Shown in pieces: positions 54,910-60,274 of a DNA stretch of 64,000 nucleotides; position 1 is the first letter of the stretch, and every line of letters begins with the position of its first letter. Below the pieces are notes generated by a model that saw only the letters and a program-made list of their open reading frames with translations, ran no database searches and was not told the origin of the DNA. Position numbers and translations under genes: made by a program. The stretch is taken from the sequence record PV390658.1; one strand, written 5' to 3'. Source of the DNA: Escherichia phage vB_EcoM_P54.

Positions 54910-54997
54910 TGGTGTGCCGTGTAGGAGTCGAACCTACCGAGTCTCAATGACAAGGGATTTACAGTCCCCACCGCTACCATCTACGGGATAACGACAC
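54910..54997 (-). tRNA. tRNA-Tyr (anticodon GUA), long variable arm
   Basis: 88 nt; anticodon stem GGGA/TCCC with loop CTGTAAA; long extra arm; T-arm GTAGGTTCGACTCCTAC; CCA encoded. Confidence 0.7.
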
Positions 54998-55006
54998 ATT
55001 TAAATT

Positions 55007-55083
55007 TGGCGGTTAGTCAGGGATTCGAACCCTGTGCCATTCGCTTAACAGGCGACCGCACATACCTTATGTGCTTCCTAACC
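55007..55083 (-). tRNA. tRNA-Asn (anticodon GUU)
   Basis: T-arm CAGGGTTCGAATCCCTG, D-stem GCAC/GTGC, anticodon loop CTGTTAA, CCA encoded. Confidence 0.7.
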
Positions 55084-55160
55084 TTAATACATTGCCAGAC
55101 CGTGTTTTTTCTTTTATCCGCAAAAAGTATTTTGTTGCTGAATACGGTCTTCTGCAAAAT

Positions 55161-55237
55161 TGGAGGCGGGTGCAGGAGTCGAACCTGCCGATACCATGCT
55201 AATGAGACATGTGAGACGCCCTTTCTCTATACCCGCA
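55161..55237 (-). tRNA. tRNA with anticodon CAU (second copy; Met, initiator or Ile-lysidine type)
   Basis: T-arm GCAGGTTCGACTCCTGC, anticodon stem CATGT/GCATG with loop CTCATTA, CCA encoded. Confidence 0.6.
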
Positions 55238-55328
55238 ATTCTTAATGACCAGACCAAATCTCTTCTTTGTCCGATTTACCTTCAGATGTATAAGATTAAG
55301 TTTGCTGTAATTGGTCTTCTGTCAAAAC

Positions 55329-55406
55329 TGGCGTTCCAGAAGGGATTTGAACCCTCAGATATCCACTTTGAAAGAGTGGTGACTATACCATTTTGTCTAC
55401 TGGAAC
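55329..55406 (-). tRNA. tRNA-Glu (anticodon UUC)
   Basis: Acceptor GTTCCAG/CTGGAAC, T-loop TTCAAAT, anticodon stem CCACT/AGTGG with loop CTTTCAA, CCA encoded. Confidence 0.75.
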
Positions 55407-55413
55407 ATTAATT

Positions 55414-55490
55414 TGGTCTCTGTTGGAGGACTTGAACCTCCGGCCTTACCGCCCCAAACGGAACGCTCTACCAAGCTGAGCTAAACAGAG
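55414..55490 (-). tRNA. tRNA-Pro (anticodon UGG)
   Basis: Acceptor CTCTGTT/AACAGAG, canonical D-arm GCTC-AGCTTGGTA-GAGC, T-arm GGAGGTTCAAGTCCTCC, anticodon loop TTTGGGG, CCA encoded. Confidence 0.75.
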
Positions 55491-55655
55491 ATAAACTTTT
55501 CAAACTCTATGTAACCACTTTAACATTATTTTTTAGTGGTTGTCAAGAACTTTTTTAAAATATTTTTCAGTATCTTAGAAAAGCTCTCATTTCGTTTCTA
55601 TGTAGAACATATTAAAGGGTATCAAACACATTGTCAATACCCTTTTTAAAACTTT

Positions 55656-57071
55656 TTACCAGATGTAACGGTCAATCATTACTGCTTTGAGCATTACGCT
55701 GATTGGGTCAAACTTCTCACCACCAAGCAGAGCTTTTAAAGTGGCTGGAGAGAACCCTGATACCATTGCTACACCATTATCCTTAACAGACACTTCGCAA
55801 GTGCCATTACGGTTTGCTAAGTACCAGAATACTAGTTGTGGCATTTCGTATCCAGCTTTTTTGTACTTACTCTGAATTGCTTCAAAGTTTGTACGACCAT
55901 TTGCACCATCAACCTGATTGAACTCCATATCAGAGAAGATAATAAGCTTACTTGGCATATCTTTCTGAGTCAAGTTGTTTCGCTTACCTACCTCAAGAAT
56001 ACGGTCAAAAGCTGCTTGTAAGTTAGTTGAACCATACTCAACATGACGCATAACCTGACGATGACGGTTTCGTAAATCACCACTCAGTTCAATGAAATGA
56101 GGGTTTGTTGAATATACCATTAACTCATCTTTAAAGCAACCTGTATTGCGTTCTGCTACATACAAGGCAAGGGATACACCAATATCAAGGGCAGTGATTG
56201 AACCAAGATTCACCCAAGACATTGAACTTGAAACATCAGTCATACATAAGATGTTTTCACCCTCTGCCATCCAGTTTGGAAGTGCTTTCCACTGCTCGTT
56301 AGCGACATCTGCATTACCATACTTAATAGATTTAATCACATCGTATGGGTAAACAGCACCAGCGTTAATCTTAGCCTCACCTTTTGAGAGTGACTCGATG
56401 TAAGCTTTGTAACGTTCCCCATCTTTACGGTTAAAGAGTTTTTGGTAACGTGCAGCAGCGAGTGAAGGAACCTTGCTGTAGTCAATCTTACCAAACTCAT
56501 TAGCAGAGATTTTTTGCTCAACCGTATCAGACAGTGCAGATAACAGTGTGCGATACTCCTTCTCGCTTAAGTTTGCAAACTTACAGAAACGTTTTACAAA
56601 CTGTTTATGGCGTGGTTTTACTCGTGGCAACCACTTAGCTGCTAAACCCGCTGTTGCAGGGTCTAGTAACGCTGCTTCTAAATGTTTGAAGGCATCTGTC
56701 TCAAAGCGAGTACCTACGAAGATTTTGAAGTCATCAAAACGACCAAGTTCTGCAATCTTATCCATAATGCGAAGAACCTGTGTAGGTTCTAAAACCTTAT
56801 CTTCAATCGCTTGAAGTAAAACAGTTCGGAAAGCTTTACGCTCACCCATACCTTCTCGTACATCTCGCATATGCAGTAAAATACGAACTGCAACATCAAC
56901 ATCCTCACGCAAAGCTTTGTAGAACAAGTCTGGTAAGATTTCTACATTGCTACGGCTTGAGCCAGCAGCTTTGTAAAAGTCTACAAGAGCAGACATTGAT
57001 GAAGTATGGTTTACAGCACCATTTTCAGTTCGACCTGCATGAAGGTGCGCATGTTTAAATAACTCGCTCAT
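55656..57071 (-). CDS. vWA (MIDAS) domain protein with helical N-terminal domain; possibly DUF2828/TROVE(Ro60)-like
   Basis: 471 aa; MIDAS-like CMTDVSSSMS followed by hydrophobic strands and LIIFSDMEF; N-terminal ~270 aa helical; immediately upstream of and co-oriented with the tRNA cluster. Family assignment is inference. Confidence 0.55.
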   Translation of the reverse strand: MSELFKHAHLHAGRTENGAVNHTSSMSALVDFYKAAGSSRSNVEILPDLFYKALREDVDVAVRILLHMRDVREGMGERKAFRTVLLQAIEDKVLEPTQVLRIMDKIAELGRFDDFKIFVGTRFETDAFKHLEAALLDPATAGLAAKWLPRVKPRHKQFVKRFCKFANLSEKEYRTLLSALSDTVEQKISANEFGKIDYSKVPSLAAARYQKLFNRKDGERYKAYIESLSKGEAKINAGAVYPYDVIKSIKYGNADVANEQWKALPNWMAEGENILCMTDVSSSMSWVNLGSITALDIGVSLALYVAERNTGCFKDELMVYSTNPHFIELSGDLRNRHRQVMRHVEYGSTNLQAAFDRILEVGKRNNLTQKDMPSKLIIFSDMEFNQVDGANGRTNFEAIQSKYKKAGYEMPQLVFWYLANRNGTCEVSVKDNGVAMVSGFSPATLKALLGGEKFDPISVMLKAVMIDRYIW

Positions 57072-57152: not shown

Positions 57153-57524
57153 TTATTTTTTAAGCGTTGCTACAGCAGAGAACGTTGGTTTGTTATCTGT
57201 CTGAGACTGACCACCATTATCAGGAGTCTTCTTAGTGTCTGCTGCAATTGCTTTCATCTCACCTGCTGAGTGGGTCATGATAGTTTTACCAGCTTCCATC
57301 ATTGACTTCAGGTTTACATCGTCAGTCGTCAAACCGAACTCTGCAAGCTTAGCAGCGTCCCTTGTAACAATCGCCTCAAACAACTTTGCAGCAAACTCAG
57401 CAGAATTATCAATGGTCAGTTGAGCTTTTACGAGAGAACTTTTGTTACGAGAGCCTTTTGGTCTTCCAGATGGGTTTCCAGACTGGCCTTTTTTAAACTG
57501 GCCTTTGTTTGTTCTGTTTTTCAT
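57153..57524 (-). CDS. basic protein with AT-hook-like motif (123 aa)
   Basis: N-terminus KKGQSGNPSGRPKGSRNK contains a GRP AT-hook core; first gene after the divergent promoter region at 57.5-57.75 kb. Confidence 0.45.
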   Translation of the reverse strand: MKNRTNKGQFKKGQSGNPSGRPKGSRNKSSLVKAQLTIDNSAEFAAKLFEAIVTRDAAKLAEFGLTTDDVNLKSMMEAGKTIMTHSAGEMKAIAADTKKTPDNGGQSQTDNKPTFSAVATLKK

Positions 57525-58925: not shown

Positions 58926-59810
58926 ATGATTAAAGCAAAGACTTACCCAGACTTCAAAGAGTTTGTAAAAGGTTTTGTTGCAAACGTAAAGGCTGGTAAG
59001 AGATATGATTTTAGAACATATCAAGAGGCTATTTTACCACTTACCTATAGTTCGTATTGGCCTGAAGCTGACATTGCAGAAGTTAAGAAGTTTGACTACA
59101 AACCAGCCTATAAAGTCCCATTTAGTGATGAACTCCTTTACAGTGTTGGTGCACAGATGAGAACTGCTGATTTCTTCATGGATTTACAGTATGCAATCAT
59201 CAACGGTAAAGATGTTGACACAATTTACTGTGAATGGCTGGCAAGAGTTAAACCTTTCTCAATGCTGAATGCTAAGTTGAAAGATGCCATCACACCACCA
59301 TCAATCACTCAGCAGCCAACAAACCAAACAGTCAATGAAGGTGGAACACTTACTCTGAGTGTTATTGCGTCTAACGCCACTGGATATCAGTGGAAGAAGG
59401 ATGGTGATGACATCCCTAGTGCCACTTCTGCAACTTACACAAAACAATCCGTAGCACCTTCTGATGCTGGTTCTTATACTTGTGTTGTGTCTGGAGAGGC
59501 TGGTACAAGCGTTACCTCAGATGCAGCAACAGTTACTGTCAACGCACTACCTGTGATTACACAGCAACCTTCTGGTCAGACTATCAATGAGGGTGGAGAC
59601 ATCAACTTGGTAGTGGCTGCAACAGGTGCAACAGGTTATCAGTGGAAGAAAGATGGCTCTGACATCCCTTCAGCTACAAATGCTACCTATAGCAAGTCTG
59701 GTGCTCTACAAGCAGATACAGGAAGCTACACCTGTGTAGTTACTGGTGCAGGTGGCTCTGTAACATCTAATGCGGCAACAGTTACAGTTAACCCAGCAGG
59801 GGAGGCATAA
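58926..59810 (+). CDS. protein with two tandem Ig-like domains
   Basis: 294 aa; two ~86 aa repeats each with ATGYQWKKDG(D/S)DIPSAT and GSYTCVV, an I-set/Ig-like signature; stop overlaps the endolysin start. Confidence 0.55.
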   Translation: MIKAKTYPDFKEFVKGFVANVKAGKRYDFRTYQEAILPLTYSSYWPEADIAEVKKFDYKPAYKVPFSDELLYSVGAQMRTADFFMDLQYAIINGKDVDTIYCEWLARVKPFSMLNAKLKDAITPPSITQQPTNQTVNEGGTLTLSVIASNATGYQWKKDGDDIPSATSATYTKQSVAPSDAGSYTCVVSGEAGTSVTSDAATVTVNALPVITQQPSGQTINEGGDINLVVAATGATGYQWKKDGSDIPSATNATYSKSGALQADTGSYTCVVTGAGGSVTSNAATVTVNPAGEA

Positions 59811-60274
59811 TGCAACTCTCAAGAAAAGGTTTAGAAGCTATTAAGTTCTTCGAAGGTCTGAAGTTAGAGGCTTACGAAGACTCTGCCGGAATCCCGACAA
59901 TCGGGTATGGTACAATCCGTATTGACGGAAAACCTGTTAAGATGGGTATGAAAATTACTGCTGAACAAGCTGAACAGTATCTTCTTGCAGATGTTGAGAA
60001 GTTTGTTGCAGCAGTGAACAAAGCTATCAAGGTTCCAACTTCTCAGAATGAGTTCGATGCACTTGTAAGTGAAACATACAACATCGGTATCACAGCTATG
60101 CAGGATTCTACATTTATCAAGCGCCACAACGCTGGTAACAAGGTAGGTTGTGCAGAAGCTATGCAGTGGTGGAACAAGGTTACAGTCAAAGGTAAGAAGG
60201 TCACTTCAAACGGCTTGAAAAACAGACGCAGAATGGAAGCTGACATTTATCTTGACAGTGCATACCCAAAGTAA
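59810..60274 (+). CDS. endolysin, GH24 lysozyme family
   Basis: 154 aa; N-terminal LEAIKFFEGLKLEAYEDSAGIPTIGYGT matches the catalytic signature of lambda R / T4 e type lysozymes. Confidence 0.75.
   Translation: MQLSRKGLEAIKFFEGLKLEAYEDSAGIPTIGYGTIRIDGKPVKMGMKITAEQAEQYLLADVEKFVAAVNKAIKVPTSQNEFDALVSETYNIGITAMQDSTFIKRHNAGNKVGCAEAMQWWNKVTVKGKKVTSNGLKNRRRMEADIYLDSAYPK

Follow-up and report, generated by a model that had tools for sequence, protein, structure and literature searches.

We analysed a 64,000-nt stretch of Escherichia phage vB_EcoM_P54 (PV390658.1; below, the window is this whole stretch), a Felixounavirus (Felix O1-type myovirus of Salmonella/E. coli), and found that a gene for a Ro60-like protein of 471 aa (55656..57071, minus strand) is followed by four small structured RNA units (A-D), which sit 0.35-1.0 kb downstream of it on the same strand, in spacers between the first tRNA genes. 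The Ro60 fold is recovered for the protein by structure prediction, and a family of small RNAs with covarying stems is coupled to this gene, in a strand-specific manner, in phages of Proteobacteria, Firmicutes, Actinobacteria and Campylobacterota. The protein and units A-D probably form a ribonucleoprotein (RNP) partnership, a variant of the Ro60/Y-RNA type for tRNA/RNA surveillance. We infer physical binding, the role of the shared motif as the binding site and a downstream function from these observations; what that function specifically is, by our analysis, is much less certain. Ro60/Y-RNA particles are a classic RNA-surveillance system, found in animals, in about 5% of bacteria and in a few phages. 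The phage module would represent a second, sequence-distinct protein family with the Ro60 fold, with its own class of small RNAs that is missed or overwritten by current annotation.

The open reading frame (ORF), which begins with ATG, is exactly the one given by a first-pass annotation of the window, which had proposed a protein with a helical N-terminal half, a von Willebrand factor A (vWA) C-terminal half and a possible likeness to Ro60/TROVE. The protein is a full-length member of DUF2828/DUF7788 and PHROG 850: PF25043 (DUF7788) matches with 148.9 bits (E 2e-43, cut-off 27.1), PF11443 (DUF2828) with 103.9 bits (E 1e-29, cut-off 29), and the PHROG 850 profile, labelled 'RNA-binding protein', spans residues 1-471 (E 4e-184). 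An NCBIfam search gave no match. The DUF2828 family comprises >3,300 proteins in a metagenomic search, with relatives in 709 phage records, and it occurs in phages of Klebsiella (Stephanstirmvirinae), Vibrio (Schizotequatrovirus), Aeromonas, Cronobacter, Sinorhizobium, Campylobacter, Synechococcus, Bacillus, Staphylococcus, Enterococcus and Listeria, and in Lak phages. In BFVD, the same fold family is present in Pithovirus, Mimiviridae, Cafeteria roenbergensis virus, Marseillevirus and Bodo saltans virus (for DUF2828 in giant viruses, see also bioRxiv 10.1101/033464). Some homologues have been named already: those in 69-77 kb Mycobacterium phages (Samty, LilDestine, Rumpelstiltskin; Vilmaviridae) are called 'Ro-like RNA binding protein' in SEA-PHAGES, and PHROG-based genome annotations use 'RNA-binding protein'. 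The Pfam, PHROG and SEA-PHAGES entries supply names only; the Ro-like nature of the protein is thus annotated in places, and our result is a confirmation of it.

The protein consists of a helical ring (about aa 1-265) and a vWA domain (about aa 270-455). The MIDAS (metal ion-dependent adhesion site) motif DVSSSMS noticed in the first-pass annotation is indeed present at residues 279-285 (D279-V-S281-S-S283, 56223..56237, minus strand), and T349 and D381 complete the site. The site is complete, because all five residues are invariant, both in a family alignment of 43 sequences and in a wider set of 24 sequences that adds members from Listeria, Staphylococcus, Campylobacter, Enterococcus and Mycobacterium phages; in the 43-sequence alignment, the helical half contains many invariant Arg/Lys. 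An AlphaFold2 model built on the family alignment (pLDDT 88, pTM 0.88) is all-helical to about residue 263 and has an alpha/beta vWA fold at 274-448, which agrees with the proposed order of the halves. When PDB was searched with Foldseek, the top twelve matches were all Ro60/TROVE structures, with alignments that span the full length (E 2e-8, TM up to 0.66), including Xenopus and human Ro60, Deinococcus Rsr and the Ro60 of Thermus phage phiLo; vWA-only proteins came next, with TM of about 0.2. As modelled, the protein has the Ro60 architecture, i.e., an antiparallel helical-repeat ring closed by a vWA domain, together with the vWA and MIDAS (DxSxS, T, D) that characterize TROVE/Ro60.

Identity to the Ro60 structures is 12-16%, and no Ro60 was found among PDB sequences by phmmer or by a search with the 43-sequence family profile. 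We also compared DUF2828 by hhalign with a TROVE alignment built from relatives of gp220 of mycobacteriophage Bxz1. Residues 235-443 (the vWA domain and the preceding helix) were aligned with 83-84% probability (E 7-9e-6; both alignments are of low diversity, with an effective number of sequences, Neff, of about 3), and the outcome was unchanged with the widened DUF2828 alignment. The MIDAS motif was paired with DVSGSM of the true Ro60 vWA, and the aligned part takes in the family-specific stretches VYPYDV/VHPINV and VSGFSP/VSGFDS. Ancestry shared with Ro60 is very probable, at least for the vWA half, and, judged by its profiles, the DUF2828 protein is a separate sequence family rather than a member of Pfam TROVE.

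Three of the four RNA units are short, and all are on the minus strand. Unit A (67 nt, 55251..55317) occupies the tRNA-Glu/tRNA-Met spacer; its stem is AGACCAA/TTGGTCT, and its motif TTACAGCAA (ACAGCAA at 55302-55308) begins 2 nt past the 5' strand of the stem. Unit B (54 nt, 55097..55150), in the tRNA-Met/tRNA-Asn spacer, has the stem AGACCGT/ACGGTCT and the variant motif TCAGCAA (55135-55141), in place of which most relatives have TTTACAGCAA. Unit C (68 nt, 54777..54844) has the stem AGACCAA/TTGGTCT and the motif ATACAGCAA, with ACAGCAA at 54829-54835. In each of units A-D, a terminal stem pairs the 5' end with the 3' end, and a (U)ACAGCAA-type motif stands directly after its 5' strand. The ends CAGA-AGACC...GGTCT-GG are common to all four, and these ends and CAGCAA are invariant within the genus; the interiors are swapped wholesale between Felixounavirus subgroups, and the stems of paralogues differ compensatorily (AGACCAA/TTGGTCT vs AGACCGT/ACGGTCT).

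Unit D (125 nt, 54633..54757, minus strand) starts 899 nt past the stop codon of the Ro-like gene, and it includes a perfect tRNA T-arm (54690-54706) in a 426-nt gap with no called tRNA. From 5' to 3', the unit is composed of the outer stem AGACCGTT, TTACAGCAA, CTTAA, a V hairpin, the T-arm GAAGG-TTCGATT-CCTTC, a 7-bp closed hairpin ACTCGGC-AGAT-GTCGAGT, TG (U8-N9), the D-arm GTGT-AATGGTA-GCAC, TTAAG and the outer stem AACGGTCT. The motif TTTACAGCAA is at 54742-54748, CTTAA/TTAAG form an inner stem, the closed acceptor-like hairpin is at 54672-54689, the D-arm is at 54655-54669, and the sole GGCGAAGG of the unit falls at the V/T junction. The minimum free energy (MFE) fold reproduces this layout, and the tRNA invariants U8, A14, G18G19, A21, T54-C56 and G53-C61 are present. 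It should be noted that a permuted V-T-AS-D topology (AS, acceptor stem) defines the YrlA Y RNAs (Chen et al. 2014, PMC4201824). As in YrlA, the stem-loops T and D are near-invariant (here, among Felixounaviruses), the AS hairpin is conserved in structure and not in sequence (ACTCG/CGAGT, ACACG/CGTGT, ACCCTTC/GAAGGGT), and a V stem-loop lies upstream; the RNA gene shares the strand of the Ro-like gene and is less than 4 kb away from it, likewise in at least ten other lineages. The GNCGAAN0-1G motif of YrlA is absent from the 5' region of 14/14 long units examined, and (U)ACAGCAA holds its place.

We considered a reading of unit D as two abutting tRNA halves, which is excluded because the pairing of the closed acceptor hairpin survives sequence change through compensatory substitutions. 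As a canonical tRNA, unit D is not called by ARAGORN, and the Rfam tRNA model sees its T-arm only (14.9 bits). Rfam reports no Y_RNA in the window, and weak matches to Plastid-ycf2, miRNA, tmRNA_permuted and S15 models are antisense tRNA or noise. The folding energy of a 201-nt region around the unit was not better than that of shuffles (z = -0.62); the case for unit D therefore rests on covariation and recurrence, and not on energy. The structured spacers and atypical tRNA-like genes that the first-pass annotation had pointed out are real, and they correspond to units A-D. In Salmonella phage SP116 (loci L001/L016), unit D is conserved up to the T-arm, which is followed by an ordinary tRNA 3' end CACTTCTACCA with no closed hairpin or D-arm; this variant suggests recombination between a Y-like RNA and a tRNA gene.

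The long form recurs in unrelated phages. A structural descriptor (T-arm, closed stem of at least 5 bp, D-arm) was run on the window and 89 loci (1.7 Mb); it matched exactly once in the window, at unit D, and 0 times in 1.7 Mb of shuffled sequence. Clean matches (7-bp stems, no tRNA overlap) beside the DUF2828 gene and on its strand were obtained 299 nt downstream in Klebsiella phage FBKp34, 170 nt downstream in Mycobacterium phage Samty, in two copies in Enterococcus phage EFGrNG, and in six IMG/VR lineages. The Rfam YrlA model recognizes such units over its full length, with 47.8 (Enterococcus, E 1e-7), 39.6 (Klebsiella), 37.9 (Mycobacterium) and 34.3 bits (E up to 1e-3); the positive control, the YrlA beside the true Ro60 of Bxz1, scores 32.5 bits, which is no better than the long units. 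Eleven long units from outside Felixounavirus (114-137 nt) follow one plan, an outer stem of 7-10 bp, the motif 0-2 nt after it and the core, and RNAalifold recovered the T, AS and D helices from their alignment, with 14 compensatory pairs among 16. From these eleven units only, with no Felixounavirus sequences, we built a covariance model, R1. When applied to the window, R1 found unit D in full length (54632-54757, 56.9 bits, E 1.9e-8); the runner-up (26.9 bits) was a tRNA-tRNA junction with a broken AS stem. Across 65 loci, R1 detected more copies that were not used in training, always on the gene strand, and it did not find the YrlA of Bxz1. Weak descriptor or R1 matches across two adjacent tRNAs, with an AS of 5 bp, D stems of 3 bp and scores no higher than about 39 bits, were discarded as the known tRNA-dimer artefact.

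In every lineage, (U/C)ACAGCAA is located 0-3 nt past the 5' strand of the terminal stem, and its coupling to the gene was counted in 63 de-replicated loci. Within 500 nt past the stop codon, [T/C]ACAGCAA occurs 54 times, and within 500 nt ahead of the start codon 15 times; the background amounts to 1-2 per bin, and the opposite strand has 0-1. When a looser descriptor was applied (NCAGCRA and a stem of at least 7 bp), a unit was found within 1.5 kb on the gene strand in 52/63 loci. The density there is 0.48/kb, compared to 0.07/kb for distal flanks and 0.06/kb for the opposite strand. Units are of two sizes, about 50-69 nt or about 95-138 nt. Units adjoin the gene in phages of Klebsiella, Listeria, Campylobacter, Staphylococcus, Enterococcus and Mycobacterium, with arrays directly upstream in Listeria WIL-1 and Campylobacter F352 and directly downstream in Staphylococcus S-CoN_Ph16, Samty and FBKp34. 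The motif is specific to the DUF2828 family, because Bxz1, at its true TROVE locus, has the T-AS-D core and no ACAGCAA unit. The first-pass annotation had suspected a structured RNA cognate to the protein; four stem-plus-ACAGCAA units, one of the YrlA type, are what we found, and the same RNA class stands beside the gene family in unrelated phages.

A large clade without tRNA genes (none within 10 kb) carries two units directly past the stop codon. The first unit is 70 nt long, GGTTCC-TTACAGCAA-(variable)-GGAACC; 4/8 pairs of its stem change on both sides, 97% of the cells are paired, 0/500 shuffles reach its score, and slid controls collapse. The second unit of this clade (GGATCGGTACAGCAAAAAGTAC...CTATGAT; L040-L075, e.g., about 2140-2226 in L048) is highly conserved; no convincing terminal stem was found for it, and its motif may sit in the loop of a GTAC/GTAC hairpin. 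Tiny 'hypothetical protein' ORFs are annotated over units in Samty (gp55; L004 11562-11756) and WIL-1 (gp032-034; L005 6524-6796), and these are likely to be spurious gene calls.

Association of the gene with tRNA clusters, which the first-pass annotation had also proposed, is real: a tRNA lies within 1 kb in 16/63 loci and within 10 kb in 33/63, and 12 of the 34 loci with full flanks have none. All of the tRNAs (376/376) are on the strand of the Ro-like gene. The tRNA distance profile is flat over 0-10 kb, so that there is no internal control for the association; tRNA linkage is frequent and not obligatory. In Listeria phage WIL-1, 17 tRNAs and three units lie upstream of the gene, and genes for RtcB, NADAR, an RNA ligase and a metallophosphoesterase are found within 6 kb downstream, a neighbourhood that mirrors the bacterial rsr-yrlBA-rtcBA arrangement (PMC7790460). 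In Enterococcus phage EFGrNG, we observed a transfer-messenger RNA (149.7 bits, tag AKNEELLAVA; L009 3951-4301) in the tRNA cluster upstream of the Ro-like gene and four Y-like units.

We propose that the protein would act as a ring-shaped RNA-binding protein, in which a ring of helical repeats is closed by the vWA domain and the metal site is intact, and that its partners would be the four small RNAs, three short (54-68 nt) and one long (125 nt). The terminal stem and the single-stranded (U)ACAGCAA would be the handle recognised by the protein, in the place that the Ro-binding GNCGAA/GGUCCGA motif occupies in YrlA and vertebrate Y RNAs. The long RNA would, like YrlA, carry in addition a tRNA-like module of permuted order (V, T, closed acceptor, D) whose D-loop/T-loop elbow is intact. 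On the model of the Ro60/Y-RNA particles found in Deinococcus, Salmonella and Thermus phage phiLo, the RNA may gate the protein cavity and may tether the protein to tRNA-recognising or RNA-degrading/repair enzymes, e.g., polynucleotide phosphorylase (PNPase) or RtcB. It should be noted that YrlA and Yrn1 tether PNPase (PMC4201824), as do the Yrl RNAs of phiLo with the host PNPase (PMC12135203). The phage could thereby survey, protect or clear damaged/misfolded tRNAs and other structured RNAs during infection, or the particle might serve in counter-defence.

Several observations weigh against this partnership. The protein has no match at E<=1 to Pfam TROVE (PF05731) or vWA_Ro60 (PF25045), both of which are matched by the positive control Bxz1 gp220, a bona fide phage Ro60, and the N-terminal ring was not aligned to TROVE by hhalign with alignments of either width. 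Because the profiles link the vWA half only, homology of the N-terminal half to Ro60 is argued from the fold; the suggested kinship with TROVE/Ro60 thus holds for the fold and for the vWA profile link, and it does not extend to Pfam TROVE membership or to a profile link of the N-terminal half. Rfam YrlA (RF02553) has no match in the window at E<=10, and all its scores in relatives are below the gathering score of 69. By the looser descriptor, with its false-positive rate of about 0.06/kb, 11/63 loci are without a unit. Unit D is dispensable in at least one relative, since SP116 has a tRNA 3' end in its place. In Felixounavirus and in Staphylococcus Sextaecvirus, the Ro-like gene has a terminase-small-like gene on one side and terminase large on the other, which could hint at an unrelated role linked to packaging.

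This last point would suit a protein-protein adaptor, an assembly or packaging cofactor like the MoxR-vWA systems, whose likeness to Ro60 is structural only and to which the RNAs are unrelated. The intact MIDAS site, the location of the gene in two distant lineages next to a terminase-small-like gene (DUF5681; Terminase_4 in the Staphylococcus phage) and the N-terminal half without a TROVE link by sequence profiles all agree with such an adaptor; we regard it as quite improbable, and no rival accounts for the full-length Ro60 fold plus an RNA family that accompanies the gene everywhere. Somewhat better placed, and still unlikely, is the possibility that the units are cis-acting elements, either signals for processing, stability or termination in the tRNA operon or operators in the untranslated regions (UTRs) of the mRNA of the protein, with unit D as a decayed or rearranged tRNA pseudogene. 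The tRNA spacers of the window are a fitting location for such signals, positions right past the stop codon or before the start codon suit UTR elements, and the T-arm of unit D in SP116 runs into a normal tRNA 3' end. However, units are also found at loci without any tRNA, they form tandem arrays of 2-4 with invariant ends and replaced interiors, like independent small-RNA genes, and the closed acceptor hairpin of unit D is kept compensatorily in a T-AS-D layout that recurs in phages of different host phyla. Moreover, the long units are recognized by Rfam YrlA, which models a bona fide free RNA, and an autoregulatory operator would still be a cognate RNA of the protein.

An ordinary, divergent Rsr/Ro60 orthologue with ordinary YrlA/YrlB, as in mycobacteriophages and Thermus phage phiLo, would have the same fold as Ro60 and long units that match YrlA, and the two families share one product name in SEA-PHAGES. 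Their Pfam families differ, however (PF11443 and PF25043 vs PF05731 and PF25045, with no match to the TROVE hidden Markov model), identity to Ro60 structures is as low as given above, and the handle is ACAGCAA as opposed to GNCGAA, the YrlA of Bxz1 having no ACAGCAA unit and being missed by R1. True TROVE occurs mostly in actinophages, whereas DUF2828 extends to giant viruses and to phages whose hosts belong to many phyla. This explanation is highly improbable, and a Ro60/Y-RNA-type partnership with a handle of its own is the reading that we retain.

We compared the module with several Ro60/Rsr systems, namely rsr-yrlBA-rtcBA of Salmonella, the Rsr-Yrn1-PNPase complex 'RYPER' of Deinococcus, Bxz1 gp220, and the Ro60 of phiLo with Yrl1/Yrl2. 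Like Ro60/Rsr, the phage protein is modelled as a helical-repeat ring closed by a vWA/MIDAS domain, with small RNAs within 4 kb on the same strand (PMC4201824). As in YrlA/YrlB, one RNA has the permuted V-T-AS-D domain and shorter RNAs are without it, and, as in Ro60/Y RNA, a conserved single-stranded motif adjoins the 5' strand of the terminal stem; in some genomes, RtcB and RNA ligase are neighbours. Unlike Ro60, the window protein has 471 aa (vs about 500-550) and belongs to a separate sequence family, in which the vWA half alone is profile-linked, and the host range of DUF2828 is much wider, giant viruses included. Unlike YrlA, the motif is (U)ACAGCAA and not GNCGAAN0-1G, and the arrays have up to four units, often interleaved with tRNA genes. 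Compared to a canonical tRNA, unit D has a T-arm, a D-arm, a 7-bp acceptor-like stem and the usual invariants; however, its acceptor is loop-closed with no free CCA end, T precedes D, and the anticodon arm is replaced by a long terminal stem. In the searchable literature, whose coverage is incomplete so that novelty is unproven, we found no description of partner RNAs, of an ACAGCAA Y-like class or of YrlA-like RNAs beside DUF2828 genes, and, within the same coverage, no experimental work on the DUF2828/DUF7788 family.

The only Rfam family that weakly matches the short units of the window is Dicty_Class_I_RNA (RF01414), with 24 bits (55096-55149, unit B) and 15.3 bits, compared to a gathering score of 41.5. 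Class I RNAs are 42-65 nt long (Kjellin et al. 2021, PMC7919456); a short stem joins their ends, a conserved 11-nt motif stands by its 5' strand, and the interior varies. They have AAG/CUGU termini and near-invariant U3, C6, C9, A10 and A11, they are present in many copies with a mechanism that is unknown, they have been reported as unique to Dictyostelia, and their only named binding protein is the RNA recognition motif (RRM) protein Rnp1A (PMC7919456). The Rfam consensus GaUcuCCUUACAGCAA...GagAuC contains the same motif in the same place as the phage units. Its motif CCUUACAGCAA is identical to the motif GGTTCCTTACAGCAA of the tRNA-less phage clade, which carries the full Class I motif CCTTACAGCAA, and it contains the phage core UACAGCAA; the near-invariant positions of Class I are those conserved in the phage motif. 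Units A-C also have the Class I architecture, i.e., 54-68 nt with a terminal stem, the motif by its 5' strand and a variable interior, and they resemble Class I in their many gene copies, their AAG-type start and a stem that is conserved in structure and not in sequence. Unlike the phage units, which reside in a phage genome, Class I is a eukaryotic family with a promoter element of its own (DUSE).

A far-reaching extension would be that DUF2828/DUF7788 proteins and stem-plus-(CCU)UACAGCAA RNAs constitute an ancient RNP class, parallel to Ro60/Y RNA and spread from phages to giant viruses to eukaryotes, with Dictyostelium Class I RNAs as eukaryotic members whose partner is a DUF2828-family protein. 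The match of motif and architecture, the membership of DUF2828 in eukaryotes reported in plant papers and its presence in protist giant viruses speak in favour of this extension. It is weakened by the failure of the RF01414 model to match other phage units, whether eight loci (65 kb) were scanned or the scan was a targeted one, and by the little information that a short motif and a stem carry; on balance, we consider it rather unlikely. If the likeness is true, the long-open function of Class I RNAs becomes directly testable.

The carriers of the protein family include well-studied viruses, i.e., Felix O1-type phages, KVP40-type vibriophages, Listeria Pecentumvirus (WIL-1-type), Campylobacter Eucampyvirinae, Enterococcus Schiekvirus, 69-77 kb Mycobacterium phages and giant viruses. 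The units explain part of the 'junk' between phage tRNA genes, and the module has ties with tRNAs and, in one lineage, with genes for RtcB and RNA-ligase repair, which is relevant to phage resistance to tRNA-targeting host defences. Coordinates, the motif and a covariance model are supplied for testing.

A 2.2-kb region of the window is contained in 252 phage records and is 97-98% identical to many Felixounavirus genomes. On the minus strand, the order is the DUF5681 protein gene (57153-57524, with an N-terminal KKGQSGNPSGRPKG motif), the Ro-like gene and the tRNA cluster, followed, according to a related annotated genome, by terminase large and portal. In Staphylococcus Sextaecvirus, the equivalent place is held by a Terminase_4 small subunit (L008 7079-7588), and the order TerS(-like), Ro-like gene, small RNAs/tRNA, terminase large and portal is common to both groups; because of this equivalent slot and order, the DUF5681 protein may be the unannotated small terminase of Felixounaviruses.

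The Ro-like gene is the last protein-coding gene before the same-strand tRNA cluster, as the first-pass annotation had it; the count of 26 tRNAs given there was too high. The cluster (49839..55490, minus strand), in which units A-D are embedded and which is a context rather than an obligatory part of the module, has 24 genes by ARAGORN, or 24-25 with one that Rfam adds. This additional, atypical tRNA-like element (53805-53883, minus strand) scores 31.7 bits with Rfam tRNA, above the gathering score, and ARAGORN does not call it, even with a relaxed threshold. It has a 7-bp acceptor stem, the T-arm GCGGG-TTCGAGT-CCTGC and an encoded CCA, and its 3' part overlaps the start of an HNH ORF. The latter (53439-53831, minus strand, 130 aa; PHROG 2255, E 7e-42) lies inside the cluster and is probably a homing endonuclease; tRNA content around it varies among related phages.

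The first tRNA gene, tRNA-Pro, begins about 165 nt past the stop codon of the Ro-like gene. The intergenic gap (55491..55655, minus strand, 165 nt) contains no ACAGCAA unit; a 12-bp hairpin adjoins the stop codon, and there are two sigma-70-like promoter matches (55637-55609 and 55546-55517). Because of these matches and the hairpin, the tRNAs may have promoters of their own, and co-transcription of the gene with the tRNAs, as stated in the first-pass annotation, is a possibility rather than an observation. Two tRNA-free spacers on the minus strand, 52358-52452 (95 nt) and 52861-53115 (255 nt), in which the ACAGCAA motif is absent, contain AGACC/GGTCT-type repeats (GAAAGACCGCTGG, CTGAAGACCGTAAC and AAAGACCTATTTAGGTCTTT). 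In the divergent arm on the plus strand, a protein with two Ig-like repeats (58926-59810; annotated as a tail protein in SP116) is directly followed by an endolysin (59810-60274).

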